A stretch of DNA of 26,081 nt from an uncultured virus (IMG/VR IMGVR_UViG_3300044732_003010) (lineage: Duplodnaviria; Heunggongvirae; Uroviricota; Caudoviricetes), in the IMG/VR virus record IMGVR_UViG_3300044732_003010, positions 62,001 to 88,081 of that record; one strand, given 5' to 3'. Position 1 is the first letter of the stretch. Every line of letters begins with the position of its first letter. Under the pieces are notes generated by a model, which worked only from the letters and a program-made list of their open reading frames with translations, did not search any database and was not told where the DNA came from. Positions 4,240 to 21,736 of this stretch are shown here, one piece after another. The translations under genes were made by a program, and so were the position numbers.

Positions 4240-4685
4240 ATGACGCAATTAATGCACGGTTAGAGGCAATCGCTAACCCCATTAATTGGGAAGAAATCTA
4301 TTACAAATGGTGTGCATGGGGATTATCTATCGAGGAGTGGGAAGATTGGCCAGACTGGTTAATCCTGAAAAAATATTCAGGGATTCAAAAAGTCAAATGT
4401 GAAGAAATTAATTCACTATCAGGTACGGTTAGTCAGATTGCTGCCATGGTTCACGCCTACCTAATAGCACAATCTAAAGAAAGTTCTAAGTCACAAAGTC
4501 TTAATCCTAGTGATTTTCTGCCTTACCAGTTTAAAGAAAATAAAAAATATTTTCTTGATCAAGAAACCGCTCAAATCCTGTTAGAAGCTATGCAAGCCGG
4601 CCAAGTGCCAGTCTTCGCCACTCAGATAATAGTCGATTGCGGACTATACGACGAAATAATTCAATTAGTAGGGGAGAAAAGCTAA
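4233..4685 (+). CDS. Frameshift extension (gpT-like) of the tail assembly chaperone, giving a G-T fusion 3457-4685
   Basis: RIDDAINARLEAIANPINWEEIYYKWCAWGLS... continues without a stop into ORF 4446-4685; no ATG in the first 71 codons. Confidence 0.8.
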   Translation, partial: RIDDAINARLEAIANPINWEEIYYKWCAWGLSIEEWEDWPDWLILKKYSGIQKVKCEEINSLSGTVSQIAAMVHAYLIAQSKESSKSQSLNPSDFLPYQFKENKKYFLDQETAQILLEAMQAGQVPVFATQIIVDCGLYDEIIQLVGEKS

Positions 4686-7600
4686 TGTCTTTATCACTTG
4701 GTACTTTAGAAATCGGTCTAGGGCTAAATACAGCCCAATATGATAGCGGCATCAAATCGGCTAAAGACCAGCTTTCTTCCCTAGAGCGTCGTGTCACTAA
4801 ACTTGGCACGACTCCACTAAAAATTAAAGTTAGCGTCGATGACCGTCAGCTTTATGGGCTAAATAGTCATTTACTTTTAAAAAGAGTTGACCTTAAAAAG
4901 ACAGTTGATTTTTATAAAGCAAATCCTATTAAAGTATTTGCTGAAGATGACGCATTAGTTTCTCTTAACCAAGAGTTGCGTGAATTAAAAAAAACATCAG
5001 TAGAGATAAGAACACCTTCTAAAATTGTTGTTGAGCATCGGTTTTCTGGGTATCAAGATCGGGTAGAGAAAGCGATTGATCGATCTACTTCTCGAATATC
5101 GTCAGAAATTAGAATATCCTCTAGCAAAGGAGGCGTTGCAGGCGCAATTGGCCGTATTTTAATGTCTCCTTTTAAACTTGCGGGACGAGTTCTTGATGAC
5201 ATGGTTACTGGTTATTTCGAGAAACTAGGTCAATCCTTTGCAGAAGAGATAGGCGTAACATCAGCTAAAAATACAGCTAAAAAAATTAAATCCGCAATAA
5301 CAAAAATTGATGAACAATTAATTGGTAAAAACCAAGTATATGAAACGTTTTTATCGGAATTTTTTAGGTCAGGAAGTATAGAAAAAGCTACACAAGCTTC
5401 TTTTCCTCGCACCGAAGTAGGTAAAACTACAGAAAGACTTCAAAAATTACAAGAAATCGCATTAGTGCCTGCAAATAAACCACTGGAGCGTCTGAGATTA
5501 ATTAAAGAAAATTCTGAGTTAAATAAAATTTATCAACAAGTATTACAAAAAATAGAATCGGAAAATCCTGGTATTAAGCCGCGAGAAGCGGGGAAAAAAG
5601 CCATGGCTCAGTTTTTAGTTGACGCACAGCCACAAACACAAGTATTAAAAGGATTTGTTAATTCTTTTATTCAAGAAATGGCTCCTTTATTAAAATTTAT
5701 ACAAGGGATGAGGTCTTATAGAACATCAGTAGAAAGCCAAAAATATTACAACGAAAGAAAAGCAGGTTTTCCATTACTAAGAGAGGGGGAAGATGTAGTT
5801 AGTGTCATTGGAGGAGCGCAATTTAAGGGAGGTCAGGGTGGCAGACAAGTTGTTCAATCAATTGAATTATTAGCTCCTAATAAACGATTTATTCCTGTAG
5901 AAAATCCTGAAACTGATACTGATAAACAAAACCCTAATCTTTTAGAAAAAATGATTAGGGATAAAATAACTGAGATTGCCCCTGATTTTGCTGCTGGAGA
6001 AACCATAGATACAGCAATTAACGCTTTTCGGCAGGTAGTAAACGCTATTAACCCGTTCGGTTATTCTACGGCCGCAGCGCAAGCAATAGCCAATACCAGA
6101 TTAGCTGAAGAACAGGGTAAAAAAGGCAGTGTTGTTAGCTATTCTTTAGGAGGAGCAGATAACCTTCAGTATGCTCAAACAGCATCATATTTAGGAATGC
6201 AGCCACACGCATTAGCCATGGCTTATCCCTTTCTTAATTTTACTCAAAATACACCTAAAGGATTTAATGCAGCATTACTGAGTGGCGACCCTCTCGGTTT
6301 TGCCAAGTTATTAGGAATTGGAGTCAATACTAACCAATTCCGCTCGATTGAAAGTAATACTCCTTTTGGGCTATCAAATCACCACCAAAAACATTTATTT
6401 AAAGAACAACCTTTTCTAGATTTATTTTATAAGACTATTAATGCTGAACAGCCAGATATGACCCCAGGTCAACAATCAAAAGTTGTTCATGCCGGCGATA
6501 AGCTATATGAAGTATTGGGATCGACTCTACAATTAAAGTCACTTAAAGAAACAGGGGAATTTGATAAGACTCTACCTTATCATAGATTCTTGCAAGGATA
6601 CAGCAGTGGCAGTCCTAACGTAAGCGTAGAAGGATTTATTGCAAAGTTTTTTGAAGGGCTTCGTCTTATATCTTCTTTTGATACAAAAGAATTACAGCCT
6701 GTGTCACAAGCTTTAAAAAGTTTAATGGAACCTTTAATTCCATTTATAGCTAAAAAATTTAGACAAGGGGGTGCAAATTTACCAGAAAATCCTCAAGATT
6801 TTGCCGGGTATCAAAAATATCAACAAGAAGCAAAAAGTATAAACAGAGCATTATTAGAATTTAAATCAGGAAAACTTGCTGATACTCCTAGCTGGTATGC
6901 TGGAAATTTAGAGCCTAATGAAGTTAAAAGACGGACAGAAAAGATTAGAACCGAAACAATACCGTGGTTTACTTCTGAAGAAAGTACGTTTGGGCAAACT
7001 TACACAAAAAAAATTGTTGAAGCATACAAAAAAATAGCTGATGTTGCTGATGAATTTATTAAGACAGGAGGAAAACTATCGCAAAAAACCAAAGACAGTA
7101 TAAAAACTTTTGAAGTTGATGAGTTTTCTGGGGAATTAGCAAGTTTTTTAAATACACGCCTTGACACATCAACACTACCAAAAGAAGAAGAAGTAAGACA
7201 ATTACAGGTTACTGTTCCTGAAATTTTTCTGAAAAAGCAATCAGCTATTTTAGCTTACAACAAACTTCTTAACGCCGTAGGTAAAGAAATTCTTCCTGGT
7301 ATTTCTGAAATCAAAAAAATTGGTGCAGGAATGTCTGGAGCCGTTGCTCTTCTTTCAGATAATCTTGTTTATAAAACTGATCTTGACCCAATAGGAGCGA
7401 CAAAAATTGCGTCAGAAGATGAAATTAAGGCTTATGAGAAATTACAAGGTCGTTTGTCTCCTTTATTGTACAAAGCAGTTCCAGGTCAGGCTTTAATTAC
7501 TGAAAGAACACAAGGTCGTCCTTTAAAAGAAATACTTGATCGAATTGCACGTCCTTACAAAGAAATTCAGCAAAAAATACAGGAAGCTAATAAAGCATTA

Positions 7601-10600
7601 GAGTTAGCCATAGACAACAAAGATGCGACTAAAATCAAAGAGCTAAAAGTATTAACCAAAGAATTACAATCGTCTGCCAAAAAAGAACACAATCGTTTTA
7701 ATAAGGCCGCATCTATTCTATATCAACAAGTAGGACAACTTGGAGCATCCTTACAGGAAATGGGTGTTGTTCATAATGATTTAGCTGCAGCAAATGTATT
7801 TTTTGCACAAGGTGGAATTACTTCAATTGATCTCGGAAATGCAAAGGTTGATCCGACTAGCAGTGATAAATTTAACGATAAAATTACTACTATTCAGCGA
7901 GCAATTATTGATTCTAGCTATTACGGATTGATGGATCCTTTTAAAATAATAGGCGCAGTTCAATCTGGCTACTCAAAACCTTTTGCTACTCAAGTTTCTG
8001 ATTCTAATGCCAGACAAAAATCAGCCATTATCCCTCAGAAAAGAGAAATTAATGAAACTCTTCTTTCCCCTGTAGTAACAGGAAAAGCAATTTCATTAGG
8101 TTCATATACACCAACTTTATTAAAGCAAATCGTTGGTGATTTTTCTTTGCCTACTAAAGAAACTGTTTTCGCAAAAATAGATACTCCCGAACAAAAAAAA
8201 GAACAACCAATTCTAGATAATCAACCACAAAAACTTAATGATTTAGCTGCTACAGCTAAATCAAAATTAGAAGATGTTTTAGCTTCACGACTTGGTACTC
8301 CTGATAAATCGGGAGAAATTCAGCACCTTAGCGGGAATGAAGATTTTGCAGAATTACTACAATTAACTCTTGTAAGAGAATTAAAAACAGCAAGCCTTCT
8401 ACTTTCAAAAGCTTTCCGAGACACATCTCTTGACGTTATTAAATTTGGCCAGGTTGTTTTTACAGTCTTAAAAGCGATCGAGCGTCCAGTAATGGCTTTA
8501 CCTGGTGCTGCAATAGGTAAAAAAGCTATTCAGGTAGGGGGAACGGCTGCTATGGGAGCCGCCGCTCTCCACGCTCTCCCGATGGGGCTAGATGCCACGG
8601 TTGTCAATACTATGCGAGATATTCTTGCAGGGGCGATGAGTGCTGGCGGTCGGGGAATGGTCCAAGCCGTAGCCACACAAATGACTCAAGCTTTTAGCGG
8701 CTTGCCGTTTGGAGTGGGACAACAGCTAACGGAAGCAGTAGTGCAGCTTGTAACCGAAATAACTAACGGCACTATCAGCGTCCTATCGCAGGGGGGAGCA
8801 GTTGCTGGATCGGCGTTAATGGCCGGTGAAGGTGTTAAGAGACTCTTAGGAGCGGCTACCAGTAATGTTCCTAAATTAATTAGCAAAGAAGAACAGCAAA
8901 AAATTGAGGGTAAAACCCAGAAAGCATTAAAAGCGGCAAAGAATAAAGCTGATTCTTTGATTACCACTGAAATAACTCCATATTTCGATGAGAGAGTCTT
9001 CCCAGCAAGTAACCCTATTCCAGCTAACATCAAGGCAATTAACCCAGAATATTACACGGTAAAACAATTACGAGGATTGGCCAGAAATCAGGGAATTGAC
9101 GTACCAGCATCAGGAGCAGGAGCCAGAAAAGAGGAAATATGGAAATCGTTGACTGAAAAATTTAACCCTGATCAGCTAACTCGACTTTTACTAACAACAA
9201 AAGCAAGTGATAGAACAAAATTAGGGAAAAAAGAACTTAGTGGATTCCAGGTTGCATCTACAGAAATTCCTGCTGATTTTACTAAGAGAATTGGCATTGG
9301 CATAAAAAACATTGGTCAAGAAATTAATACTACTAAAGATATCCAATCTTTAGAACGTCTTTATTTTCAATTAGAAAAAGTTAAAAAGGGAATTACAGCG
9401 TTAAGAGCTAATCCTGAATTTAACACAACAAATATTAATAAATCATTAAGTGGCTTTTTACAGTCAGTTGATAATTTACAGACACAAATTCTTGCTAAAG
9501 GTGGTTTGGAGTCAGGGAAAAATCTCAACAAAGGTTTAGCTAAAGGATTAAAAGATACTAGCGCAAGCGACATCGCCTATCAAAACGCTCTTAAAATAGT
9601 AGATCAAATTGATAAAGGGCTGGGAAATGCTTCACCATCTTGGAAGGGGGAAGAATCGGGAGAAAATTTTATTAAAGGTGTGGCAATTGGAATAGAAAAA
9701 GGAATTTCTTCTTTTGATTTTCAGAGTTTAGCTAGTGAAGTTGTTAAAGGATTTGAATCAGGGTTGTCACTTGGCGATATTGAAAAAATTATTCAATCTT
9801 ATTTTGATGTAAATATTCCTAACTTAAAAGATTTAGCTGTTGAAGCGAAAATGATGGGGTGGGAAGGTAAACCAATTGACGGGCTACTAGAAAAAAAATT
9901 AAGCAAATTCCCTCTATCAAAAACTTTTACTCCTGTTGAACCCCCAAAAAATAATATTATTTCTTATCCTACCCCTACACGATTAATTGAATCAAACTTA
10001 CCATCGGAAAATGCGTTAGCTTCTGCTAGTATTAGACTCAAGCAATTATCTAATTTTTACGCTGGACATAAAACAGCTTTTGCAAATCTCAAAGCTATTT
10101 TAACACAAGGAATAGACCCTACTTTTAATCAATGGAGTTTAAGAAGAGACAGATTTGATTTTGAAAAACAAGTTTTCAAAGAACCTGTTGCTTATAGCGC
10201 AATTAACTCTTTTTCCGAACCGATTAAAGGAAATGATTACTATGGCGATGCTGAAATAATGCTCGATATAGCAAAAATTGCCAACCGATCAACATTTACT
10301 AGAGGTGACTCTGGTGCTTTTTGGAGAAATCCAAGCGAGATAATAACAAATCCTTTGTCTAGCTTTACACCAGACCAATACAATCGCAGACCTAATGAGA
10401 TACTTGAATACCTTGAGGTTCAAACTACTGGCAAAATTGATCCGTCTGATTTTTTAGGGATTAATTTAGGCGATATAGAAGAAAAGTACAATATTTATGG
10501 ACGCAAACTCATTGAAGTTATTGCATCTTCTTTAAGTGCTGGCGTTCCAGTATTCGCAAAAAACCTTGAAGCGATTAGTTCGATGTTTTCCAGTGAGGGC

Positions 10601-13600
10601 AGACAGTCTGGGTTAAATTATATCAAGGGGTTAAATATTGGATTACAAAATAATAATAGCGAAAAATACGCTTTAGATGTTGCGATTGGAATTATCGACG
10701 CAACAAATAAAGGGCTGGGAAATGCTTCACCGTCTAAAAAAGCGATGAAAGCAATGCGGTTTTTTTATGAAGGATTAGCGTTAGGGGCGCGTCATATTCG
10801 CTTCGGATTAAGGCTAGAGACTCAATTCGATAAAGAAGTAAGCGATTTTACTTTCTTTGTCGGGACGAGGTCAAAAGAAGCCCGAAAAGCGATCCTTCAA
10901 GCTGTTAAAGAAATGGTAAACCAAGGGGAACGCCTAGCGGCTATTAACGAGATTCAAGGCTCGATGAACACGGGAATTTTCGCTTCTCCCCGCGCTTTTC
11001 AAGTGATGAAGCGAGCTACCGTCATCGCTCGTCCAAAAACAACACGAGAAGAAATTCTTGACGACTGGAATAAAAAACGAGACAACATTTTCAACGCTCT
11101 CGATAGCATTGAAAAAGCGGGCGTTTCTAGTGGTTTTACAAACGGTATCGTAAGCGGACTAAAAGCTGTTATTGCCCAAGCGGACGGATTTATTAATTTC
11201 CTCTCGGTTGGTGGCAAAGCACTCAGAACTCTCGACCAAGAACTTAATGCCGCTACAGGAGGTATGATTAATCTTCGTAAAGGTGCTATAGCGGCAATTG
11301 GGGGATTTGCTCTTTTCAAAGGAGCAGAATTTTTATTACGACCTCTATTTTTTGCTATTTACGATATTCCTTTTAGGATTCAACAAGCTGTTACTGATTC
11401 TTTACTTGCTTTTACTGAGTTACAAAGAATTAAATTAAATTTAAATCTTGCTGGTGTAGGCAATGTAGAACAATCTCTTGACGCTTTAGTGGCAAGGGCT
11501 GACAAATTAGGAATATCCTTTAAAGAATCCGCTATTGCTTATAGCAGATTCAAATTAATTACTACCAATTCTCCACTACAAGCGCAGGCAGATAATATTT
11601 TTGAAGGATTCCAAGAGGCATTATCGGCGCGACAAACCAATGCCCAACAGCAAGCTGAATCTTTTAGAGCTATCGGGCAAATAGCCTCTAAAGCTGTTGT
11701 TTCCGTTGAAGAATTCACGCAGCAATTGAGCGAGTCAGGAGGATTAAACGACGCTTTAAACGTGGCCGCCCGATCAATGGGGTTAACCACTGCTCAATTT
11801 TATCAACAAGCATCAGCAGGCAATCTTTTGGTACAAGATGTTTTACCTCGATTAGCGGCCGAATATGAACGGATGAGTGCCGGAGGTCTTTCTCTCTCTA
11901 CTAAAACTTTACAATCGGAAATCTCTCGATTCCAGAACAATACCGAACAACTTCAAATGCAGTTAGGGGAAAAAATTGGAGTAGTCGCTTACCCTGCTTT
12001 ACAGGCATTAAATGCCGTCTTGAGTACCTTAAATGACAATCTAGGGACGGTGGCATCAGTGGGAGCCGCCGGGTTACTGTCAGTCATGGGATTCTTAGGA
12101 AAATCAGTCATGCAATTTGCGGCAGCGGGTCGGTTAGGAGCCGTTGCCAGTGCTGCTATGAGTGCATCCTTACAATCTGCCGGAGTAGCGTCTCTATCTA
12201 CAGCTACAGCCATGGGTAGATTAAAAGTATCTATAAACCTTGCTACTTTAGCAGGAATAGGATTAATTAAAGCATTGATTATTCCTACTGCGGTGATAAC
12301 TGGTATTCAATTTGTTTATAACGCATTAAATGCTGGTAGCGAAGAACTAAAACAAGCTGTAAGAACCCTAGAAGAGTCTAAAAAAGCTCTTGATGCTTGG
12401 CAAAACAAAACCGATAACAGTAATCGCAAAGGCCTAACAAGCTTTTTGCCTGACATGGAATTGTCTGGAGGAGAAAAGTTTTTTAATGTTATAACATTCG
12501 GGATTGTTTATAATTCTAAATGGCTTATGTCACTATTAGAATTACGACAAGGACTAGAAAACATTGATAAATCTCTGGCTACTGGAGTTGGGAATCTTAA
12601 AGAATATCAAAAAACTTTATCTAATTTTTCAGGTAGCAAGCAATTTTCATCTGAATTACAAGAAATCAGAAATAATTTAGCTTTAGTCAGAGCAGAAAGA
12701 ACAATTGCAAGCGCAAAAGGAAACGACCGATCTGTAGCTGAATTTAACCGGCGAGAGCAGGATTTAATGAAGCAAGAACAGGAGCTAATTAATAAACAGT
12801 TAGGTCCCGTTGGGTCAAGAATTACTGCCGACCTTCAACAATATGAGATGGCGTTAGCATCGTTAGAGCAAAGCTTTAAGAATAGAGATATAACTGACAT
12901 TGCTTACGCGCAACGTAAAAAAGACCTCGTGACTATAATTGGTCAACTAAAAAAAGCGGAACAAGATTATCTACAAGTCTTGAAAGATCAAGAAAAAGAA
13001 TATAGAAAATTACAAGTTGCCTTTGATCTTGCTATAAGAACAAGAGCTAATGCCAATTTTGCTAATGAAGGAAATAGTTTAAGTCGTTCAATTGGATTAA
13101 ATCAACAATTTGCATCAGGGGAAATTAATGAATTTCAGTTTAATGTTAAAGTTCGAGAAGAAAGCTTACAGACTGCTAAAGAGCGTATTGCCACTTTAGG
13201 CAATACAGCTAACTCTATCTCTAATACTTTAAACGAAAGGCTATCTAAATCTGCCAATAAAGTTTTAAGCACTTACTTTAAAGAAGATCTAAAACAGCTA
13301 AATGTAGCGAGCTTTGGTGGAGCAATTGCTGGAAATTTACTCTCTCCTGATGCTATTCAGCAAATAATGGATCAGTATGAATCTGACCTAAAAGATAACG
13401 CTGCTTTAAGATCTATTTTAAATCAGGCTAAAGAATACGCAACTGCTCGACGAGATATTTTAAACACTGAGAAAGAAATTCAGCAAATTAGTCGAGAGAT
13501 TATTGTCGAAAGAAAGAAAAGACAAATACAAGAAAAACAGGCTAGTAAAGAAATTGTTAAAGCAGAACAACTTACTAATCTAGCCAATAAAACCTCCTCC

Positions 13601-16600
13601 AGTCAAAATATTGGCTACGGACTAGAGCAAACCAAAATAAACTTGGCAGCTCTTTATAATCAATTAGCCTTAGAGCAAGAAAAATTAGTATTAAACGTAG
13701 ATGATCCGTTAACGGTCAAAACAGCTATTGCAAATATCACACAGCAAATAGCTGAAACCGAACTATCTTTAAGAGATCAGCAAGAGCAACTACAATACTA
13801 TTACCGCAACCTTGGCCGTCAGATAATCGACTTTAATCGTCAGATTGAAGATTATAGAAGACAGATTGAAGATGCTCAACTGTCAGCTTTTAGAGGAAAT
13901 CGTTCTCTATCTGAAAGTTACACTGATTTAGTCAGGGAACTCGACAAGAAACTCTTAAATGCCCAAAATCAGCTACTGGATGCGACCGATAGAATCAGGG
14001 TACAGCAAGTTAAAAACCGTTTATTAATACCCGGTACAAGCGACGCTGGTAAAGAATTAGGTGACATTTTCCTAGAATTTGTCCAGGGACAAGCTGACCT
14101 TGCCAGTCGCGGTCGCACCTTCCAATCCCGAACCGAGGAGATAGAAACTTCCTATATCTCTACTCTAAGAAATATTCGTAACTTACAAGAGCAACAGCAA
14201 GACGCTGAAAGAAGCCGACTAAGAACGATTGAGGATATTAAACGGACTCAAGAAAACCTTAATCGCACCTTAGCTGACTTAATCCGACAAACCAATAAAG
14301 AATTAGGCTTTATTCCCCAATCAATCAAGGATATTGTCACAAATCTTAATACACTTCCAGAACCAATTAAATTAATCAATTCTGAGTTAGTGGCTATTCC
14401 CCCAAATATTAAGACTTCTGGAGAAGACTTAATAAAAAGTATAGAAGAAACTGCGGAGGCAATTAGAAAAGCTAAGGAAGGTTTGATACTACCAGCACCT
14501 AGTAATTTCACCCCTGCTCCTGTGTGGAATGGGGGAGGGGTTTTACCGCCGCCACCGCCACAGTCGTCTTCAATTCCCAAAGGGTTAACACCACGCGGTC
14601 GAGAATTATCTCAATATTTAAACAATCCTCACGTCAAGGCCTTTCTTGATATTATTGCTTACGCAGAAGGTACTGCCAATATGCCAAATAAGGGATATAA
14701 CACCCTTTTTGGCCATGGACAATTTAGTTCTTTTGCAGACCATCCACGCCAAAGAATTCCGTTTGGATCAACCAGTTCATCGGCATCTGGAAGATACCAG
14801 ATCATGGATTTTACATGGAATGAAGAAAAAGCAAAATTAGGATTAAAAGATTTTTCTCCTGTCTCTCAAGATTTAGTCGCATTAAGTCGTATTTTAATGA
14901 GAGGTGGATTAGACGAGCTTCTTAAGGGAGATATTCGTGGGGCAATTAACGCAACCCGCAAAGAATGGGCATCTTTCCCAGGGGCTAATTACCCAGGGCA
15001 AGGCATGAAACGGATGGAAGACCTGTTAAGGGTTTACGATCAGTCTTTACGAAAATACCAACCAAATGCCCCTCGTACTCAATCCGAACTAGACGCACTG
15101 CGATATGACGGCAATCCTGCTAACAGCGGAGCATCAAACCGTATTCGACAAATCAGAAGAAATCAAGGCGGTTTACCCACTCCATCAACTTCCACCCCTA
15201 ACCCTTCTCCATCAGTTCAGCAACAAATCACCAACAGATTACCAAAAAATATTCAATCTGTTTTAGTTCAAGAAGTTGGCGGAAAAACTGTATATTCTAA
15301 AAATGCTCAAACACCTCCAGCGTCACCAGCTAGTACAATTAAAGTTATTATTGCTGATTTGATTGCCAAAGAAATAACAAGCGGAAAACTTTCCTTAAAA
15401 GATGCTATCGCCATAAAATTGCCTTTGGTTGATCCACACGGACAATTAAAAGCCAATCAAGTTAAAACAGTTGAACAGCTAGTACAGTTAATGCTAGAAA
15501 AGTCAGATAATACGGCAACTAATGTTTTAATTGATCGGCTAGGTGGGCTAACCAAAGCTACAGAATTAGCCAGAAAAGAAGGTTATAAAAACACTACTAT
15601 TTCTAGGTATTTAAATATACCAGGCAGTGGAACTCCAAACATTTCAACAGCACAAGACGTAACGTTAGCTATGCAGTCTTTAATTAAAAATCAAAATCCT
15701 GCAAGTCAATTAGCTGAACAATCTCTAAGACAAACAAGAAATTTTAAGTATAATAATGAAATCGGCGGAAAAATTGGAAATAACTCTAAAGTTATTGGTA
15801 ATGTTGGACTGGTAAACATTAATGGGAAAGAATATATTGTAACTGCTTATGCAAACATTAACGGCAATCAACTAAATAATCGAAAAATAATAACTAATGC
15901 TACTAATGCAATTAGCCAATCCATTAAAGACTCCACCCCTAACCCTTCTCCTGCCCGTGTTTTAACAAAAGAAGAAACAAAAGAAGGAAAAGGTGGACCA
16001 GAATTTAGTAGTCCTCCACCCATAGCTCAGTTACCGACTTTACCTAATCAAAACCGAGATAATTTCTGGGATGCCGATTTACCACCGGTTCTTAAAGACA
16101 ATCCGATTAACTTCCAGAGTCCTAATTTGCCTCCCGTTCCCAATCTTCCTACGGGTAATCTTGGCGCAGCGGCTGATCAAATTCGCAACGCTGAAACAGC
16201 TAATCAAAACGCTGAGGAGTTTTCAAGACGACTAGAAGAGCAACAAAATCTAAACAAGGCTCTTGACAGATCAATGAAATTTAGACGGCAGCAAGAGGAA
16301 GATGCCCGTGCATTAGAACGTACTTTAAGAAATGCTTCCGAAAATGTCGCTGATTTGACTATCAACTCTAAAGGGTATCTGACAGTACAAGAAGAAATTA
16401 ATAAGAGTGCTACAGAAGTCTCTCGTCAATATCGCTCTCAAATTGAATCACTAGAAGACCAGCGACGGACTTTACTTTTAAATGCTGAGGCTCAACAAAA
16501 ATACAGCGACGCGATAAAAGAAATCTTAGGAGAATTTCAAAGAAAAGGTATAGCTCTCCCCCCTGAATTTACCAAAGAAATGATAGATAGTATTGACGCT

Positions 16601-17833
16601 TTAGCTAAACGCGCTGAATTAGCTAAAGAACAGGTAGCAATTCTTGATCAAGCGATTGAACAATTAGGCAAGAATCAGGGAGTAGCCAGCTTAGAAGCAT
16701 CATTTAGAAAAACCAGAGATACAGTCAGGAGTATTCGTGATCGGTTAAATGATTTAACTATCCAAAGAATGAAGTTAGAGAATCAAGCCCGACCGACTTT
16801 ATTTGATGATTCTGCTATCCTTGCCGAACGTATTAGCCTACAAAAAGAAAAAGAGGAACTAGAGGATTATTTAGAACCTTACAAAGACTTACCACAATAC
16901 GCTGAATTTGTGGCTAATATTCGCTCGGAATGGGAAAAACTTGCAGAATTAAGATTAAAACGAGCGGAGTTAAACGCTTCCCCAAATCGTGGCGCAGCTG
17001 AAAGCTTTTTCTCTGATATTAGAGAAGGAAAAGGAATAGGATCGGCTTTTAGTAGTCTTGGATTAAATATCATGACAAAATTTGTTGAGGGTATTACTAA
17101 GCCCGCTATCGATGCTTTAACTTCTGCTATCGATGGATTTACAAAGCCGATTACTCAGGCATTTGAATCAGTATTTAATGCAATCATCGGTCCAGTAGGT
17201 AACTTTTTCACTAATGCCCTCAGTAGCATTTTTAAACCAGTAGGTAACATCTTTTCCTCTATCTTTGGGGGCGGTGGCGGAGGTGGCTTATTTAATGGCT
17301 TACTTAGCGGAATAACAGGGATTTTTAGTGGAGGGATTGGGGGACTTGGTTCGATTGGATCACTTGGTAGTATAGGAGCCTCTAGTTTTGCTTCTGCTCC
17401 GGCTTCTGCCTTTTCTCTAGGTACAGGATTCAGCTTATTTAGTGATGGCGGGAAAGTTGGAGATGCCAATGTTCCGATAGAGAAAAATATCATTTCAGCT
17501 TTTCAGCGCGAACGAGCAATGTCGGGAGGCCGAAAACCTCGCTTGATCGTAGCTAATGAAGACGAATTGGTTCTTAACCCTAAAGAAACAGAAGCATATC
17601 TAGAGTACAGAAATAATGCTCCTATTAAGAACTATGCTAATGGAGGATTTGTCGGGGGTAAGCCTAATTACTCCACAACCTCAAATAACAATAGCTCTAA
17701 TCAGTCTTTGGTAATTAATAACACCAATAACGTGACTGTAGAATCACGGAATGATATGGGGTATAGTTTGAATCAATTGAAAGAACGGGAAAATGCACAA
17801 AATGAACGAACTAAAAAACGATTCTTTGGGTAA
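4685..17833 (+). CDS. Giant multi-domain tape measure protein (~4382 aa) with alpha/beta-hydrolase-like, kinase-like, ART-like, lambda-type lysozyme and PBP/class-A beta-lactamase-like domains
   Basis: N-terminal SLGTLEIGLGLNTAQYDSGI, GLGNASPS motifs, tape-measure core (GQIASKAVVSVEEFTQQLSE...AARSMG ~11400-12100), long coiled coils, position after G/GT; ATG 4685 overlaps the gpT stop (TAATG) with a GGGGAG RBS. Confidence 0.9.
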   Translation: MSLSLGTLEIGLGLNTAQYDSGIKSAKDQLSSLERRVTKLGTTPLKIKVSVDDRQLYGLNSHLLLKRVDLKKTVDFYKANPIKVFAEDDALVSLNQELRELKKTSVEIRTPSKIVVEHRFSGYQDRVEKAIDRSTSRISSEIRISSSKGGVAGAIGRILMSPFKLAGRVLDDMVTGYFEKLGQSFAEEIGVTSAKNTAKKIKSAITKIDEQLIGKNQVYETFLSEFFRSGSIEKATQASFPRTEVGKTTERLQKLQEIALVPANKPLERLRLIKENSELNKIYQQVLQKIESENPGIKPREAGKKAMAQFLVDAQPQTQVLKGFVNSFIQEMAPLLKFIQGMRSYRTSVESQKYYNERKAGFPLLREGEDVVSVIGGAQFKGGQGGRQVVQSIELLAPNKRFIPVENPETDTDKQNPNLLEKMIRDKITEIAPDFAAGETIDTAINAFRQVVNAINPFGYSTAAAQAIANTRLAEEQGKKGSVVSYSLGGADNLQYAQTASYLGMQPHALAMAYPFLNFTQNTPKGFNAALLSGDPLGFAKLLGIGVNTNQFRSIESNTPFGLSNHHQKHLFKEQPFLDLFYKTINAEQPDMTPGQQSKVVHAGDKLYEVLGSTLQLKSLKETGEFDKTLPYHRFLQGYSSGSPNVSVEGFIAKFFEGLRLISSFDTKELQPVSQALKSLMEPLIPFIAKKFRQGGANLPENPQDFAGYQKYQQEAKSINRALLEFKSGKLADTPSWYAGNLEPNEVKRRTEKIRTETIPWFTSEESTFGQTYTKKIVEAYKKIADVADEFIKTGGKLSQKTKDSIKTFEVDEFSGELASFLNTRLDTSTLPKEEEVRQLQVTVPEIFLKKQSAILAYNKLLNAVGKEILPGISEIKKIGAGMSGAVALLSDNLVYKTDLDPIGATKIASEDEIKAYEKLQGRLSPLLYKAVPGQALITERTQGRPLKEILDRIARPYKEIQQKIQEANKALELAIDNKDATKIKELKVLTKELQSSAKKEHNRFNKAASILYQQVGQLGASLQEMGVVHNDLAAANVFFAQGGITSIDLGNAKVDPTSSDKFNDKITTIQRAIIDSSYYGLMDPFKIIGAVQSGYSKPFATQVSDSNARQKSAIIPQKREINETLLSPVVTGKAISLGSYTPTLLKQIVGDFSLPTKETVFAKIDTPEQKKEQPILDNQPQKLNDLAATAKSKLEDVLASRLGTPDKSGEIQHLSGNEDFAELLQLTLVRELKTASLLLSKAFRDTSLDVIKFGQVVFTVLKAIERPVMALPGAAIGKKAIQVGGTAAMGAAALHALPMGLDATVVNTMRDILAGAMSAGGRGMVQAVATQMTQAFSGLPFGVGQQLTEAVVQLVTEITNGTISVLSQGGAVAGSALMAGEGVKRLLGAATSNVPKLISKEEQQKIEGKTQKALKAAKNKADSLITTEITPYFDERVFPASNPIPANIKAINPEYYTVKQLRGLARNQGIDVPASGAGARKEEIWKSLTEKFNPDQLTRLLLTTKASDRTKLGKKELSGFQVASTEIPADFTKRIGIGIKNIGQEINTTKDIQSLERLYFQLEKVKKGITALRANPEFNTTNINKSLSGFLQSVDNLQTQILAKGGLESGKNLNKGLAKGLKDTSASDIAYQNALKIVDQIDKGLGNASPSWKGEESGENFIKGVAIGIEKGISSFDFQSLASEVVKGFESGLSLGDIEKIIQSYFDVNIPNLKDLAVEAKMMGWEGKPIDGLLEKKLSKFPLSKTFTPVEPPKNNIISYPTPTRLIESNLPSENALASASIRLKQLSNFYAGHKTAFANLKAILTQGIDPTFNQWSLRRDRFDFEKQVFKEPVAYSAINSFSEPIKGNDYYGDAEIMLDIAKIANRSTFTRGDSGAFWRNPSEIITNPLSSFTPDQYNRRPNEILEYLEVQTTGKIDPSDFLGINLGDIEEKYNIYGRKLIEVIASSLSAGVPVFAKNLEAISSMFSSEGRQSGLNYIKGLNIGLQNNNSEKYALDVAIGIIDATNKGLGNASPSKKAMKAMRFFYEGLALGARHIRFGLRLETQFDKEVSDFTFFVGTRSKEARKAILQAVKEMVNQGERLAAINEIQGSMNTGIFASPRAFQVMKRATVIARPKTTREEILDDWNKKRDNIFNALDSIEKAGVSSGFTNGIVSGLKAVIAQADGFINFLSVGGKALRTLDQELNAATGGMINLRKGAIAAIGGFALFKGAEFLLRPLFFAIYDIPFRIQQAVTDSLLAFTELQRIKLNLNLAGVGNVEQSLDALVARADKLGISFKESAIAYSRFKLITTNSPLQAQADNIFEGFQEALSARQTNAQQQAESFRAIGQIASKAVVSVEEFTQQLSESGGLNDALNVAARSMGLTTAQFYQQASAGNLLVQDVLPRLAAEYERMSAGGLSLSTKTLQSEISRFQNNTEQLQMQLGEKIGVVAYPALQALNAVLSTLNDNLGTVASVGAAGLLSVMGFLGKSVMQFAAAGRLGAVASAAMSASLQSAGVASLSTATAMGRLKVSINLATLAGIGLIKALIIPTAVITGIQFVYNALNAGSEELKQAVRTLEESKKALDAWQNKTDNSNRKGLTSFLPDMELSGGEKFFNVITFGIVYNSKWLMSLLELRQGLENIDKSLATGVGNLKEYQKTLSNFSGSKQFSSELQEIRNNLALVRAERTIASAKGNDRSVAEFNRREQDLMKQEQELINKQLGPVGSRITADLQQYEMALASLEQSFKNRDITDIAYAQRKKDLVTIIGQLKKAEQDYLQVLKDQEKEYRKLQVAFDLAIRTRANANFANEGNSLSRSIGLNQQFASGEINEFQFNVKVREESLQTAKERIATLGNTANSISNTLNERLSKSANKVLSTYFKEDLKQLNVASFGGAIAGNLLSPDAIQQIMDQYESDLKDNAALRSILNQAKEYATARRDILNTEKEIQQISREIIVERKKRQIQEKQASKEIVKAEQLTNLANKTSSSQNIGYGLEQTKINLAALYNQLALEQEKLVLNVDDPLTVKTAIANITQQIAETELSLRDQQEQLQYYYRNLGRQIIDFNRQIEDYRRQIEDAQLSAFRGNRSLSESYTDLVRELDKKLLNAQNQLLDATDRIRVQQVKNRLLIPGTSDAGKELGDIFLEFVQGQADLASRGRTFQSRTEEIETSYISTLRNIRNLQEQQQDAERSRLRTIEDIKRTQENLNRTLADLIRQTNKELGFIPQSIKDIVTNLNTLPEPIKLINSELVAIPPNIKTSGEDLIKSIEETAEAIRKAKEGLILPAPSNFTPAPVWNGGGVLPPPPPQSSSIPKGLTPRGRELSQYLNNPHVKAFLDIIAYAEGTANMPNKGYNTLFGHGQFSSFADHPRQRIPFGSTSSSASGRYQIMDFTWNEEKAKLGLKDFSPVSQDLVALSRILMRGGLDELLKGDIRGAINATRKEWASFPGANYPGQGMKRMEDLLRVYDQSLRKYQPNAPRTQSELDALRYDGNPANSGASNRIRQIRRNQGGLPTPSTSTPNPSPSVQQQITNRLPKNIQSVLVQEVGGKTVYSKNAQTPPASPASTIKVIIADLIAKEITSGKLSLKDAIAIKLPLVDPHGQLKANQVKTVEQLVQLMLEKSDNTATNVLIDRLGGLTKATELARKEGYKNTTISRYLNIPGSGTPNISTAQDVTLAMQSLIKNQNPASQLAEQSLRQTRNFKYNNEIGGKIGNNSKVIGNVGLVNINGKEYIVTAYANINGNQLNNRKIITNATNAISQSIKDSTPNPSPARVLTKEETKEGKGGPEFSSPPPIAQLPTLPNQNRDNFWDADLPPVLKDNPINFQSPNLPPVPNLPTGNLGAAADQIRNAETANQNAEEFSRRLEEQQNLNKALDRSMKFRRQQEEDARALERTLRNASENVADLTINSKGYLTVQEEINKSATEVSRQYRSQIESLEDQRRTLLLNAEAQQKYSDAIKEILGEFQRKGIALPPEFTKEMIDSIDALAKRAELAKEQVAILDQAIEQLGKNQGVASLEASFRKTRDTVRSIRDRLNDLTIQRMKLENQARPTLFDDSAILAERISLQKEKEELEDYLEPYKDLPQYAEFVANIRSEWEKLAELRLKRAELNASPNRGAAESFFSDIREGKGIGSAFSSLGLNIMTKFVEGITKPAIDALTSAIDGFTKPITQAFESVFNAIIGPVGNFFTNALSSIFKPVGNIFSSIFGGGGGGGLFNGLLSGITGIFSGGIGGLGSIGSLGSIGASSFASAPASAFSLGTGFSLFSDGGKVGDANVPIEKNIISAFQRERAMSGGRKPRLIVANEDELVLNPKETEAYLEYRNNAPIKNYANGGFVGGKPNYSTTSNNNSSNQSLVINNTNNVTVESRNDMGYSLNQLKERENAQNERTKKRFFG
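9612..10731 (+). repeat. 25-bp perfect direct repeat pair (9612-9636 and 10707-10731) inside the tape measure gene
   Basis: ATAAAGGGCTGGGAAATGCTTCACC twice, 1095 bp (365 codons) apart. Confidence 0.9.
15191..15951 (+). repeat. 20-bp perfect direct repeat pair (15191-15210 and 15932-15951) inside the tape measure gene
   Basis: TCCACCCCTAACCCTTCTCC twice, 741 bp (247 codons) apart. Confidence 0.9.
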
Positions 17834-18629: not shown

Positions 18630-18695
18630 TATGAGCCAAGTTATGAGCCTTTATGAGCCAAGTTATGAGCCTTTATGAGCCAAGTTATGAGCCTT
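18630..18695 (+). repeat. Tandem repeat, 3 x 22 bp (six TATGAGCC cores)
   Basis: TATGAGCCAAGTTATGAGCCTT x3, exact. Confidence 0.95.
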
Positions 18696-19010
18696 CTGCT
18701 GACGAGTTACAAAATTATAGTATCACAGAATGATTGTCTTGTCCTTGATTCTCGTTTGATTGCTGGTGAGTTGGGGATTGAACACTGCGCCTTGCGTCAA
18801 ACCATAGAAAAATACATTAACGAGATTCAAGAGTTTGGAGTTGTCGCATTTCAAATGTCGAAACCGCTAGAAGGCTCTAGCGGCGGTCGTCCTGAGCGTT
18901 ACTGCTACCTGAATGAAGAGCAAGCAACTTTAGTGCCGGTCTGTGAACTGGCACTTTTTGTGTTAGCTATCCCGACAACACCCTTGATTAGTTATCGGGT
19001 AAACTTCTAA
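18675..19010 (+). pseudogene. Rha-family phage regulatory protein N-terminal domain, apparently truncated
   Basis: LVLDSRLIAGELGIEH...GGRPERYCYLNEEQATL; similarity stops at a terminator-like hairpin and the remainder overlaps the RHH gene on the other strand. Confidence 0.65.
18932..18959 (+). terminator. Intrinsic terminator-like hairpin
   Basis: AGTGCCGGT-CTGTGA-ACTGGCACT (9-bp stem, one G-U) followed by a T run. Confidence 0.6.
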
Positions 19011-19128
19011 TCAATTCCCGGATTACCTCGGTTATTGACCGCTTTTGGGCTTTACAGTAGTTTTTTAGCTTTTTCTCTTCTGATTCTGATGTACGGACGT
19101 TAAGAGGATAATAATTTTTACTTGACAT
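18988..19128 (-). CDS. Ribbon-helix-helix (CopG/Arc-like) repressor, 46 aa, not in the ORF track
   Basis: MSSKNYYPLNVRTSESEEKKLKNYCKAQKRSITEVIRELIRSLPDN: alternating beta strand (LNVRT), helix, then S-x-x-E-V-I-R-x-L-I; divergent from the nuclease. Confidence 0.8.
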   Translation of the reverse strand: MSSKNYYPLNVRTSESEEKKLKNYCKAQKRSITEVIRELIRSLPDN

Positions 19129-19154
19129 TTCTAGTAGGCTTATGGTAGATTTAA
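19119..19154 (+). promoter_or_regulatory. sigma70-type promoter, copy 1
   Basis: TTGACA (19122-19127)-18 nt-TAGATT with TG extension; near-duplicate of 19571-19606. Confidence 0.7.
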
Positions 19155-19195
19155 GTTAGTCAAATATAGTTTAGCACCTTTTTCTACTATAAGTT

Positions 19196-19564
19196 ATGTT
19201 TAATCCCCGATCTGATTATGTTAAATTTACCGCTTGGACTAACTTAGATAGTTGCAATATATCGCAAGAAAGATTGCTTACAAAAGAGATTTTGATCGCA
19301 ATTACTTCTGAATTAGCCAAAAAATCTGGTAAATTTGACGATACTAGCTATTGTTCTGTTTTAGTTGCCCCAGAGATTTTTGAAAAATTTATCATCACTG
19401 AAACAGGATTAAATTATACGGTTCAGATTGTTGACGTGCCAAGACTATTATACTATTGGGAAGCTATAGGGTTTCCCCTTCATATTGATACTACCGCCTT
19501 TAATTTTTATAAAAGTTGGGCTATAAATTCTGATGTGGGAACTGGTATCCCAAAAAATCTTTAG
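19196..19564 (+). CDS. Hypothetical protein (122 aa)
   Basis: ORF between the two promoter copies; no recognised motif. Confidence 0.6.
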   Translation: MFNPRSDYVKFTAWTNLDSCNISQERLLTKEILIAITSELAKKSGKFDDTSYCSVLVAPEIFEKFIITETGLNYTVQIVDVPRLLYYWEAIGFPLHIDTTAFNFYKSWAINSDVGTGIPKNL

Positions 19565-19570
19565 ACTTCT

Positions 19571-19606
19571 TACTTGACATTTCTGTAAAGCTTATGGTAT
19601 ATTTAA
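19571..19606 (+). promoter_or_regulatory. sigma70-type promoter, copy 2, upstream of the nuclease gene
   Basis: TTGACA (19574-19579)-18 nt-TATATT with TG extension. Confidence 0.75.
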
Positions 19607-19612
19607 ATAAGA

Positions 19613-21316
19613 ATGAAAGAAGGTCGATCCATAAAAGCCATGCTAGTCAAGAAAACTATTGCGGACATAAAACTTAACCTTAATGCCACTCAGCGAACCT
19701 ATATTGATCGCTGGATGGACGAGCTTAAAGCTGTCTGGAATTTTGGGCTAGAGCTACTGATGGAATATCAGCTTAATAAGTATTACGACGAGCTTGAGAA
19801 AATAACAGGAAAACCAGTTAAACGGGTTAAACGTCGTTTAGCTAAAAAAACTCAATTTATTGACTCCCTAAAAAACGAAAAAGGTAAATCCCTTCCTAAT
19901 CCCCTTTACACCCCTAAATATTTAACTGGCAAGCAAAAAGTTAAAATACAGATAGCTAGAGAAAAAAGACAAAAAGCAGGTTACTCTTATCCTGTCCATA
20001 TCCCTATTCAACGGCGGTTAAAATCTGATAATTATTTTGGGTTATGTGGCTGTATTACAAAAGAAAAATGTCCAGAACTATGCAAGGACATCCCTATGGC
20101 TTTTGTCCAAGGGGTTTTAAAAAAGCTTGCTGATTCCTGGAAAGCTTACACCAAACTCGATAAAAAGAATTTAGACAGAAAACTTCCTAGATTTAAAAGA
20201 AAAGAAGATAAAATTAAATCTCTTTATTCTGAGATCAGCAATTGCGCTGTTAGAAAAGGGGATAAAATATCTATAGGTAGCTGTGGCAAAACATTAGGCG
20301 ATTTAAAGATTGTCAACAATACTTTAGATATTCGGTGGGGTGACAGAAAAGCCTCTACCGTATCAATTATCAAATACCCATCGGGATATTATCTAAGTCT
20401 ATTTGGTGAATTTGAAGTAGATGATCTACCTGATTCCGATAAAGCGATCGGTATTGACGTAGGACTAGAATATATAATTAGTACCAGCGACGGCCAACAA
20501 ATTGACCCGCCCAAATACTATAGAAAACAGCAAAAAAGACTAGCAAAACTGCAAAGAAAAACCGCTAGACAGTATAAAGCAGGGGAAAATAAAGACGGCA
20601 AAAATCTCGCTAAAACTCGTGCTAAAGTTGCCAAAACTCACGAAAAAATAGCAAGACAACGCAAAGGATTTAATCATGCCCTAAGTACCGATATTGCTAG
20701 AAATCATGGCGCTGTAGCCGTAGAAGACCTCAACTTAAAGAATTTAATGCGACGACCTAAACCGAAAAAAAGAGAAGACGGTAAAGGCTACGAACGCAAT
20801 AACGCGAAAGCCAAAGGGGGATTAAATAAATCCTTTGCTGATGCTAGTTTAGGACAATTAACTGGTTTTCTTGAAACGAAAATGAAAACTCCCAACCGAG
20901 AGTTTATCAAAGTTCAACCAGCCTATACTAGCCAAGATTGTCCTCGCTGTGGCAATCGTGTTAAAAAAAGTTTATCAACCCGCACCCATAAATGTTTAGA
21001 GTGTGGATGTACTTTACCCAGAGATGTGGCCGCCGCAATCAACATCTTAGGGAAAGCAGACTTCGTAAGAAGCTACCCGGCTTGTACCGGGGAAGTTAAG
21101 CCTCTGAAGGATTTCGATAAGGAATCAGCGCAGGAGGAATTACTTAGCAAGTCCAGCCGATTGTTACTCGGCGAAGAAACCCTCGAAACCTTACTGGTTT
21201 TGACCTCCGAGCCAGTGACACCCAAGAAAAAAACAAGGAAAAGGTCGATCCACTCGCAACCCGCGCAAACAGTCAACGCAGGCTATACGCAGCTTACACT
21301 CTGGGAGACTGGGTAA
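19613..21316 (+). CDS. tnpB: TnpB-family / compact type V (Cas12-like) RNA-guided nuclease, CRISPR-associated
   Basis: IS605 OrfB-like N-terminus; RuvC-I AIGIDVG, RuvC-II VAVEDL, Zn finger CPRC...CLEC, RuvC-III RDVAAAINI; array begins inside the stop region; start may be ATG 19640. Confidence 0.9.
   Translation: MKEGRSIKAMLVKKTIADIKLNLNATQRTYIDRWMDELKAVWNFGLELLMEYQLNKYYDELEKITGKPVKRVKRRLAKKTQFIDSLKNEKGKSLPNPLYTPKYLTGKQKVKIQIAREKRQKAGYSYPVHIPIQRRLKSDNYFGLCGCITKEKCPELCKDIPMAFVQGVLKKLADSWKAYTKLDKKNLDRKLPRFKRKEDKIKSLYSEISNCAVRKGDKISIGSCGKTLGDLKIVNNTLDIRWGDRKASTVSIIKYPSGYYLSLFGEFEVDDLPDSDKAIGIDVGLEYIISTSDGQQIDPPKYYRKQQKRLAKLQRKTARQYKAGENKDGKNLAKTRAKVAKTHEKIARQRKGFNHALSTDIARNHGAVAVEDLNLKNLMRRPKPKKREDGKGYERNNAKAKGGLNKSFADASLGQLTGFLETKMKTPNREFIKVQPAYTSQDCPRCGNRVKKSLSTRTHKCLECGCTLPRDVAAAINILGKADFVRSYPACTGEVKPLKDFDKESAQEELLSKSSRLLLGEETLETLLVLTSEPVTPKKKTRKRSIHSQPAQTVNAGYTQLTLWETG
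21070..21170 (+). ncRNA. Putative tracrRNA (omegaRNA-derived scaffold plus anti-repeat) inside the nuclease CDS; ends approximate
   Basis: Hairpin CCCGG-CTTGTA-CCGGG (21076-21091); anti-repeat TACTTAGCAAGTCCAGCCGATTGTTAC (21141-21167) matches the reverse complement of repeat nt 1-27 at 25/27. Confidence 0.75.
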
Positions 21317-21563
21317 CAATCGGCTTGACTTGTTAAGTAGATTGCAAGTTGCCAATTCAGATAGGGCGATAGGTCGTTGCCACGTAACAATCGGCTTGAC
21401 TTGTTAAGTAGATTGCAAGTCCCACTGAGAAGTGATTCAATGTCAATCGATTTCATAGTAACAATCGGCTTGACTTGTTAAGTAGATTGCAAGGAACCGC
21501 TAAAGTGTCGCTGTCAGTCGGTTTTAGGTAACAATCGGCTTGACTTGTTAAGTAGATTGCAAG
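21313..21563 (+). CRISPR. CRISPR array: four identical 36-bp repeats GTAACAATCGGCTTGACTTGTTAAGTAGATTGCAAG with spacers of 35, 38 and 34 bp
   Basis: Repeats at 21313-21348, 21384-21419, 21458-21493 and 21528-21563 with unique spacers; a further 39-bp spacer-like segment at 21564-21602. Confidence 0.97.
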
Positions 21564-21602
21564 TATGAACCAAGTGACACAGAACCCACTACAAAAGAAC
21601 TT

Positions 21603-21711
21603 CAAGCAATTAAGCTTAAGCCTTATTAGGGATTGAAACATCTACTCCTTTGTGGGATAAATCCCACCGGGCCACAGAAACAATTAAGCTTAAGCCTTAC
21701 TAAGATTAAAC
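21603..21711 (+). CRISPR. Second-family mini-array: type I-D-like repeat, 37-bp spacer, degenerate repeat
   Basis: CAATTAAGCTTAAGCCTTATTAGGGATTGAAAC (21607-21639) and CAATTAAGCTTAAGCCTTACTAAGATTAAAC (21681-21711), period 74 bp; canonical ATTGAAAC 3' end. Confidence 0.7.
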
Positions 21712-21736
21712 TAAATATTAAACCCGAAAAAAAACA

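Follow-up and report, generated by a model that had tools for sequence, protein, structure and literature searches.

Introduction

In the TnpB system of ISDra2, the guide scaffold (omegaRNA) lies on the same strand as the nuclease open reading frame (ORF) and over its 3′ end, and a pseudoknot joins its 5′ element to the bases preceding the guide. In Cas12f, Cas12k and Cas12p, the trans-activating CRISPR RNA, or tracrRNA, is encoded in intergenic DNA and is not known to lie inside the effector coding sequence. Here we describe a type V-U2 (C2c8) locus from a stretch of viral DNA of 26,081 nucleotides (nt), called the window throughout, which forms the final 26 kb of the 88,081-bp virus record IMGVR_UViG_3300044732_003010. 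The locus comprises the gene for a TnpB-like RNA-guided nuclease of 567 amino acids (P0001; 19613..21316, plus strand, assigned with NCBIfam V_cas_c2c8) and an adjoining CRISPR array. From comparisons among related loci, we consider it likely that the 3′ tail of this gene also encodes a guide scaffold, which would grip the CRISPR repeat by a long duplex and by a guide-adjacent pseudoknot of 4 to 6 bp, acting in cis with spacer 1 and in trans with the remaining spacers.

The locus resembles the TnpB system in that the predicted scaffold shares its strand with the nuclease ORF, extends over the 3′ end of that ORF and places a pseudoknot before the guide, but it has an array with varying spacers instead of one guide fixed by the transposon end. 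With Cas12f, Cas12k and Cas12p it shares a short pseudoknot at the 3′ end of the repeat (repeat:anti-repeat pairing 1, R:AR-1) and a longer duplex (R:AR-2), whereas its predicted tracrRNA lies inside the effector coding sequence. An omegaRNA gene can also overlap the TnpB coding sequence, according to a passage of a PNAS 2023 survey (PMC10691335). A 4-bp pseudoknot with the 3′ end of the repeat is given as a common feature of Cas12 tracrRNAs in the cited part of a preprint, where the Cas12p pseudoknot is 4 bp long (AAAC:UUUG) and uses tracrRNA nt 7-10 (10.1101/2025.01.20.633832).

A tracrRNA within a coding tail has been reported for Cas12n (type V-N, formerly V-U4 or C2c9), which, like the window, combines this location with a small TnpB-like effector. 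As excerpted from the preprint 10.64898/2026.03.27.714800, the Cas12n tracrRNA lies in the region coding for an unstructured, dispensable C-terminal tail after RuvC-III (section 6). The Cas12n guide consists of several stem-loops and, after them, a repeat:anti-repeat stem. Cas12n is nevertheless a different protein family, since P0001 passes the C2c8 model and not a Cas12n model, and the ORF of the window ends inside repeat 1. TnpB-derived nucleases located beside CRISPR arrays, in which the transposon RNA has been functionally split into tracrRNA and CRISPR RNA (crRNA), are known as TranC (a section of the review PMC13565253), and the preprint 10.64898/2026.03.27.714800 summarizes this splitting in the same way. 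The window shares a TnpB-derived nuclease and an adjoining array with TranC (“functional RNA splitting”, Jin et al., Cell 2025), compared here through these summaries; P0001 itself matches the LaTranC structures weakly (E about 1e-6).

For V-U2 itself, the cyanophage vB_AphaS-CL131 carries a TnpB-like V-U2 effector beside a CRISPR array with no other cas genes, and the passages cited here report that no tracrRNA was found around the locus and leave the direction of the array open (PMC6293099). The window likewise combines a cyanophage-like record with a V-U2 effector and an array; CL131 was compared by description. A preprint excerpt states that V-U2 arrays share spacers and repeat ends with V-K and I-D arrays (10.1101/2021.02.06.429022), and in a review table V-U2 is the only one of five V-U subtypes that lacks a Cas12 letter name (PMC11641405). 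Our search of the literature on C2c8 and V-U2 returned reviews, classification papers, brief mentions and, as more specific sources, the CL131 paper and the preprint on shared spacers, and found no guide RNA, protospacer-adjacent motif (PAM) or activity; supplements and two key subscription papers lay outside it and may hold an earlier description. A coding-tail tracrRNA in V-U2 has thus apparently not yet been described. Note that the principle is already published, in the form of the Cas12n tail tracrRNA, the Cas12 and TnpB guide pseudoknot and the splitting of omegaRNA in TranC.

Results

Covariation between hairpin loop and repeat end

The RuvC-III codons of the nuclease (RDVAAAINIL, residues 470-479; 21020..21049, plus strand, located by motif and alignment) mark the end of the confidently folded core. 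Hairpin 1 (21076..21091, plus strand, located by sequence and covariation) starts 26 nt past them and has a 5-bp stem, CCCGG (21076-21080) with CCGGG (21087-21091), around the loop CUUGUA (21081-21086), which would form the R:AR-1 pseudoknot. An earlier note on this DNA, made from its letters alone, had placed the hairpin just after the RuvC-III codons and had paired its loop with the last six nt of the repeat. Both statements hold, with five Watson-Crick pairs and one G:U pair between CUUGUA and repeat nt 31-36 (UGCAAG).

A single-protein search of reference genomes found no relative; alignment-based searches did recover relatives. Viral and metagenome contigs commonly carry close relatives, with 94-100% protein identity. 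Distant relatives (30-60% identity) come from cyanobacteria and other phages and have arrays with very different repeats, so that a covariation test was possible. Of 91 detected arrays, 63 were usable (at least four repeats and a RuvC-III motif found), and these gave 28 distinct hairpin/repeat combinations. The register of the hairpin was fixed on the Tyr codon, and repeat ends were taken from the arrays alone.

A 5-bp hairpin follows RuvC-III in every family, at the codons Y-P/R-x-x-x-G/R-E. Loop nt 1-4 pair with the last four nt of the repeat in 26 of the 28 combinations (108 of 112 cells), using seven pair types: CUUG:CAAG, GUUU:AAAC, CUUG:UAAG, CUUU:AAAG, CUUC:GAAG, GUUG:CAAC and CUUU:GAAG. 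Shuffled repeat ends never gave the observed count in 20000 trials; after collapse to the 12 unique types, 7 of 20000 trials did. Loops therefore track their own repeat ends across homologous loci, as had been suggested for checking in the earlier note.

Seventeen loci were also aligned with MAFFT. In this alignment 98.7% of 153 cells pair, a value reached by none of 500 shuffles, and sliding the partners by one to three columns leaves 13-62% of cells paired. All 68 pseudoknot cells pair, and two of the four pairs have changed on both sides: column pair 8:544 is CG in 14 loci and GC in 3, and column pair 11:541 is GC in 10, UA in 3, GU in 2, CG in 1 and UG in 1. The outer two of the five stem pairs are invariant; the inner three pair in 96.1% of cells, each with compensatory changes on both sides. 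Within the close relatives, the variants 21085 T>C and 21088 C>T retain or improve pairing. Because these codons track the end of a non-coding repeat, constraint on the protein provides no explanation. The predicted fold thus has the architecture of TnpB-omegaRNA and of small Cas12 guides, in which a 5′ element of the scaffold is tied by a pseudoknot to the bases immediately preceding the guide.

Two cyanobacterial contigs (L040 and L042) carry C2c8-like genes with short tails, and no array was detected on them. By eye, the hairpin loop AUUG of L040 could pair with a single downstream ...TTTCAAT, and three of four bases match in L042. L040 may represent an unsplit, omegaRNA-like state.

The anti-repeat and the fold of the scaffold

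The repeat is 36 nt long. Searching both strands of the whole window with repeat nt 1-27, at up to three mismatches, returned the four repeats and one minus-strand match, at 21141..21167 (two mismatches, against 0.00 matches expected by chance from 100 dinucleotide shuffles). This is the anti-repeat (R:AR-2; plus strand, assigned by motif search, RNAduplex and the cross test below). As RNA it forms 25 Watson-Crick pairs with the repeat, a U:C mismatch at repeat nt 14 and a G:U pair at repeat nt 21, exactly the composition given in the earlier note, and it is unique in the window. RNAduplex gives −42.9 kcal/mol for anti-repeat and repeat, compared with −23.9 for the best of 42 control windows from the same locus. 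The duplex can be extended by four pairs, to repeat nt 28-31, across a 1-nt bulge.

All close relatives retain the anti-repeat. Two linked variants, 21146 A>G (16 of 20 haplotypes) and 21147 G>A (18 of 20), which also occur in three RNA runs, exchange A:U,G:U for G:U,A:U, so that pairing is retained while the codon changes from Ser to Asp. Substitutions upstream of 20981 within the family were ignored as noise from truncated loci.

For the cross test, the tail regions of 12 repeat families were paired with every repeat. The family's own repeat ranks first for its tail region in six families, second in two and 4th to 10th in four. The summed self energy is −309.7, compared with a permuted mean of −241.4, and was reached in 0 of 20000 permutations, or 1 of 20000 with the family of the window left out. 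No anti-repeat was found elsewhere in the loci. An anti-repeat search based on energy only was set aside; it was decisive only for the families of the window and of L143/L072, and the controls that scored more strongly were extra repeat copies on the opposite strand.

In minimum free energy (MFE) folds, the region that pairs with the repeat lies about 100-150 nt past the start of the hairpin in most families and 68-94 nt past it in the window, whose family has the longest and cleanest anti-repeat. With its anti-repeat beginning about 68 nt past the start of the hairpin, compared with 100-125 nt in most other families, the scaffold of the window appears shorter than those of other V-U2 families and, by eye, seems to lack two stem-loops that the others have between stem 2 and the anti-repeat. 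Stem 2 (21101..21137, plus strand, from the MFE fold) is predicted to pair CCUCU with an AGAGG-type sequence around a small hairpin and coincides with the conserved codons KP...QE; the arrangement CCUNN...NNAGG recurs in the folds of other families, again by eye. The comparison shows the conserved “protein motifs” after RuvC-III (Y-P/R-x-x-x-G/R-E and KP...QE) to be, in all appearance, largely a reflection of RNA structure. For the stretch 21067-21348 as a whole, the predicted folding energy is −98.5 kcal/mol, with z = −5.36 relative to 200 shuffled sequences. No Rfam family matched it at gathering thresholds, and permissive E-values gave chance-level matches only.

The nuclease and its C-terminal tail

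P0001 scores 369.7 bits against NF038192 (V_cas_c2c8; cut-off 350), and 370.3 bits in the genome search, and Pfam assigns it OrfB_IS605 and Cas12f1-like_TNB. The RuvC triad D282, E371 and D471 and the zinc-ribbon residues C443, C446 and C461 do not vary across 27 aligned sequences, in which conservation of C464 is at least 90%. With the curated model, the RuvC triad and zinc ribbon, the adjoining array and no Cas1 found in the 88-kb record, the locus is type V-U2 (C2c8). The best solved relatives of P0001 are TnpB, an AI-designed TnpB-like nuclease, Cas12p and Cas12n. The TnpB structure 8bf8 is among the top PDB matches (E = 6.5e-21); 9j09 matches residues 296-483 only (E = 2.7e-17) and is Cas12n according to the preprint 10.64898/2026.03.27.714800, as excerpted. 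P0001 does not belong to the Cas12n (V-N) family as judged from its sequence, for which C2c8 is the best curated family.

AlphaFold2, run with the 27-sequence alignment, predicts a confident core and a helix at residues 470-481. Low confidence starts at the hairpin, and the tail (residues 492-567) has predicted local distance difference test values below 50 and is predicted to be disordered, as reported for the Cas12n tail. The anti-repeat, too, is placed as reported for the Cas12n tracrRNA, on the sense strand and within the coding sequence after RuvC-III, and other V-U2 families show this placement as well. Most relatives at 40-50% identity span only 86-89% of the query, and alignment A1 is poor past about residue 490 except for the last few residues. 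Even so, the reading frame continues without a stop across the scaffold in every family. Among 19 representatives it ends inside repeat 1 in 12, 5-20 nt before it in 5 and 97 nt before it in 2.

Between the anti-repeat and repeat 1 lies an A-rich, tail-coding stretch of 145 nt (21168..21312, plus strand, characterized by fold and motif comparison). Near its end, the motif CAGCTTACACTCTGG (21290-21304) encodes QLTLW. A QLxLW-type motif occurs in 17 of the 19 representative loci; 13 of these read CAG CTT A...T. TGG and are conserved at synonymous positions. In 11 of the 13 it is located 8-9 nt before repeat 1 (13 nt in L071 and 112 nt in L166). Synonymous conservation and fixed spacing together suggest an element acting at the nucleotide level. 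A sliding-clamp binding peptide, whose consensus we take to resemble the C-terminal QLxLW motif, was considered and set aside due to the same two properties, although a peptide function may yet apply. The stretch 21168-21312 and its QLxLW motif may be part of the scaffold, an array leader, both, or tail peptide. In many families, a second nucleotide-level motif, GATCCGCGCAA, precedes repeat 1 by about 50-70 nt.

Transcription

The promoter-like site at 19574..19603 (plus strand; TTGACA, an 18-nt spacer and TATATT, with TG) agrees with the consensus at 11 of 12 positions and was identified by consensus match only. It is the sole plus-strand site of this kind ahead of the locus, and the next is at 22267. 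No promoter-like or terminator-like site was found on the plus strand from the start of the ORF to 21901. With a single upstream site and a terminator-free stretch to 21901, the nuclease mRNA, the scaffold and the array probably share one transcript. The site lies in a 45-nt element that is present twice, at 19115-19159 (before ORF 19196-19564) and at 19567-19611 (before the nuclease gene); each copy holds a near-consensus promoter consisting of TTGACA, an 18-nt spacer and TAGATT or TATATT.

Twenty-four RNA runs, all metatranscriptomes, hold part of the stretch, and four of these, from four studies (X1, X2, X5 and X6), were compared through their contigs. Contigs from three of the studies cover the tail: 21076-21341 plus 8 nt in X5 (depth 15.5), 21067-21340 in X6 (depth 14.5) and 20906-21349 in X2 (depth 12.4). 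The 5′ ends in X5 and X6 are 9 nt apart and fall at the hairpin, a weak hint of an RNA end, and the presence of contigs spanning hairpin to repeat 1 in RNA libraries is a weak hint of expression. The idea that tail RNA is more abundant than the mRNA was dropped, because contig depths are not comparable and were inconsistent between runs.

The array

The array (21313..21563, plus strand, located by repeat search) contains four identical repeats, at 21313-21348, 21384-21419, 21458-21493 and 21528-21563, and three spacers of 35, 38 and 34 nt. The TAA stop codon of the nuclease (21314-21316) sits within repeat 1. Arrays of close relatives have 2-15 repeats, and the 37 loci of the family (including the window and L038, a re-fetch of it) hold 91 distinct spacers; these arrays therefore turn over in nature.

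Spacers of the window and of L025 gave no match in 50,697 isolated phage records. When the L025 array was compared with five related full records, no protospacer was found, and its spacers matched only other arrays, the downstream flank of the arrays (G000 84262-84327 and G001 82271-82328) and anti-repeats. The leader-proximal spacer of L022 (L022:4210) matches window positions 5745-5781 at 37 of 37 nt on the plus strand, inside the ORF at 4637..17833, where the 5′ flank reads ...GCCAAAAAT. This match may reflect targeting between related phages or self-targeting. As the sole protospacer found, it provides one flank from one match, and no PAM could be derived. Two spacers of the array family of the window (L008:4456 and L018:4310) recur over 31-34 nt at 100% identity in the arrays of L165, L182, L155 and L163, which have repeats of the GATTGAAAC type and lie in other phage contigs. 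This would fit a common source of spacers or common adaptation machinery, of the kind put forward for cyanobacterial arrays in the preprint 10.1101/2021.02.06.429022.

A second mini-array follows at 21604-21714, with a good repeat (...TTAGGGATTGAAAC, 21604-21640), a degenerate copy (21678-21714) and one spacer between them. Its repeat family forms arrays of 4-26 repeats beside a different C2c8-like clade (L155-L170, about 42% identity) in other phage contigs. The hairpin loop of that clade, GUUU, matches the AAAC end of its repeat, whereas CUUG of the window does not match the repeat of the mini-array. This repeat is also frequent in RNA contigs, where it occurs with other spacers. The sequence that follows the main array (21557-21602) recurs 825 nt downstream, at 22382-22427, with 89% identity, and in L005, L015, L016, L023 and L064 the array joins the downstream copy directly. 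The segment of about 825 bp, with the mini-array and two small ORFs, therefore has the appearance of an insertion that a direct duplication flanks on both sides. Other relatives show several further junctions after the array.

Genomic surroundings

The 88-kb record is cyanophage-like. The locus is flanked by phage genes for an NlpC/P60 peptidase and a Rha-type regulator and by two tRNAs, one of which is 92% identical to tRNA-Tyr of Microcystis phages. No match to Cas1 was found across the 88-kb record, in a search that did not extend to Cas2 and Cas4. None was found to Y1_Tnp (TnpA transposase) across the same record, with transposon end hairpins outside the search, and the locus does not class as an IS200/IS605 transposon (mobile TnpB). 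The ORF at 4637..17833 (plus strand) is a single frame of 4398 amino acids. Three perfect tandem copies of the 22-nt unit TATGAGCCAAGTTATGAGCCTT (18630-18695) lie upstream of the Rha-like ORF at 18675-19010 and extend into its start.

Discussion

We propose that the transcript would start from the promoter-like site at 19574 and that, from about 21070, it would serve both as coding sequence of the disordered tail and as guide scaffold (tracrRNA, or omegaRNA-like). The scaffold would then be cut out of the mRNA; TnpB cuts scaffold RNA out of its own mRNA. The anti-repeat at 21141-21167 would pair with repeat nt 1-27, possibly up to nt 31, while the loop of the hairpin at 21076-21091 would pair with the last four to six nt of the repeat to form a pseudoknot, which in the guide RNAs of TnpB and small Cas12 nucleases adjoins the guide. 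Repeat 1 would pair in cis and provide a natural single guide with spacer 1, and repeats 2-4 would pair in trans as crRNAs. Binding by the nuclease, processing, trimming of the duplex by RNase III and DNA cleavage would complete the pathway.

The earlier note had held that two separate pairings engage most of the repeat, and that an ancestral omegaRNA has split into a tracrRNA and a crRNA repeat. The two pairings are borne out comparatively, in that the pseudoknot covaries, the stem compensates and the 12-family test shows preference for the own repeat. The split itself stands less firmly and is something we infer: the scaffold is still continuous with repeat 1, which contains the stop codon, so that an unsplit form (with spacer 1) and split forms acting in trans could both exist.

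Several observations weigh against a guide scaffold in the tail. A long anti-repeat is not evident in six of the 12 families (in L161 and L068 the own repeat ranks second, in L153, L163, L150 and L071 4th to 10th). L007 and L145 account for the two failures among the 28 hairpin/repeat combinations; in our judgement, their consensus repeats were called 1-2 nt too long. Kinship among sequences can inflate the shuffle tests, and a 6-nt loop offers little steric room for 4-6 bp of pairing. Neither the ends of an RNA nor its strand or level can be read from contigs, assembly at polymorphic spacers is expected to produce 3′ ends at repeat 1, and DNA carry-over into RNA libraries is possible. In X2 a 5′ ORF contig has a depth of 27.1, whereas the tail reaches 12.4, and no tail contig is present in X1. 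Because the ORF also runs on through the tail in every family, the peptide encoded there may have its own function. Finally, the repeat is self-complementary at 22 of its 36 positions, with nt 2-7 pairing with nt 18-23, so that a crRNA-only mode could operate.

The last of these points belongs to an alternative in which the crRNA alone suffices through the hairpin of the repeat, and the anti-repeat of the mRNA tail serves in cis as a site of processing or regulation. A host double-strand RNase could, for example, cut a long duplex of the anti-repeat with repeat 1 or with pre-crRNA and thereby separate the mRNA from the array or lower nuclease synthesis, and a 27-bp duplex between ORF and array on one transcript is a plausible cleavage site. 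The same extracts of the CL131 paper that report no tracrRNA propose a Cas12a-like repeat hairpin for the V-U2 array (PMC6293099). We nevertheless regard this alternative as unlikely, because it leaves unexplained why, in every family, the last four bases of the repeat covary with a hairpin loop located about 230 nt upstream. Such covariation is the hallmark of the pseudoknot that adjoins the guide in TnpB and Cas12 scaffolds; moreover, regulation and scaffold function are mutually compatible. The same covariation, together with stem compensation, makes it very improbable that the tail elements are DNA-level leader signals for host spacer-integration machinery and not parts of a guide RNA. Such signals could account for the motif CAGCTTAC..TCTGG, which in most families stands at a fixed 8-9 nt from repeat 1, but not for these pairings, nor for an anti-repeat 146 nt upstream. 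What recommends them otherwise is that 91 distinct spacers occur in a phage family in which Cas1 was not found in the record, and that type I-D adaptation may serve the V-K and V-U2 arrays of cyanobacteria, which share a leader motif, as argued in the cited portion of 10.1101/2021.02.06.429022.

It is harder still to credit that the anti-repeat is a decaying, functionless inverted copy of the repeat and the hairpin a by-product of conserved codons. Arrays in this family do recombine frequently, and several different sequences follow the last repeat in close relatives. All close relatives nonetheless keep the anti-repeat, its sole common variant preserves pairing and alters an amino acid, other repeat families carry, at the corresponding position, an anti-repeat that matches their own repeat, and protein constraint cannot make codons follow a non-coding repeat end. 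The guide scaffold in the coding tail is therefore the reading that we carry forward.

On this reading, the comparative evidence translates into a concrete guide design, specifying the start of the scaffold, the bases of the pseudoknot, the site of the anti-repeat and the direction in which the array is read, and V-U2 thereby becomes directly testable as a compact nuclease. The locus also supplies an independent, covariation-based example for the origin of type V systems by splitting of a transposon guide RNA, in a family some of whose members still have a scaffold continuous with the first repeat.

More tentatively, and less likely than not, V-U2 loci could be living intermediates between omegaRNA and CRISPR systems, in which one transcript is at once mRNA, scaffold, leader and first crRNA, with use between phages and with spacers gained through the host. 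If so, the short scaffold (hairpin, one stem and anti-repeat, about 92 nt) and the core of about 490 amino acids would be among the smallest dual-RNA nucleases in nature. As translation terminates within repeat 1 or shortly before it, passage of ribosomes and folding of the scaffold would be mutually exclusive on one RNA, tying nuclease synthesis to guide maturation. Spacer gain by means of host adaptation proteins would account for the spacers held in common with the second array type, and phages would be actively using the system against competing or related phages.

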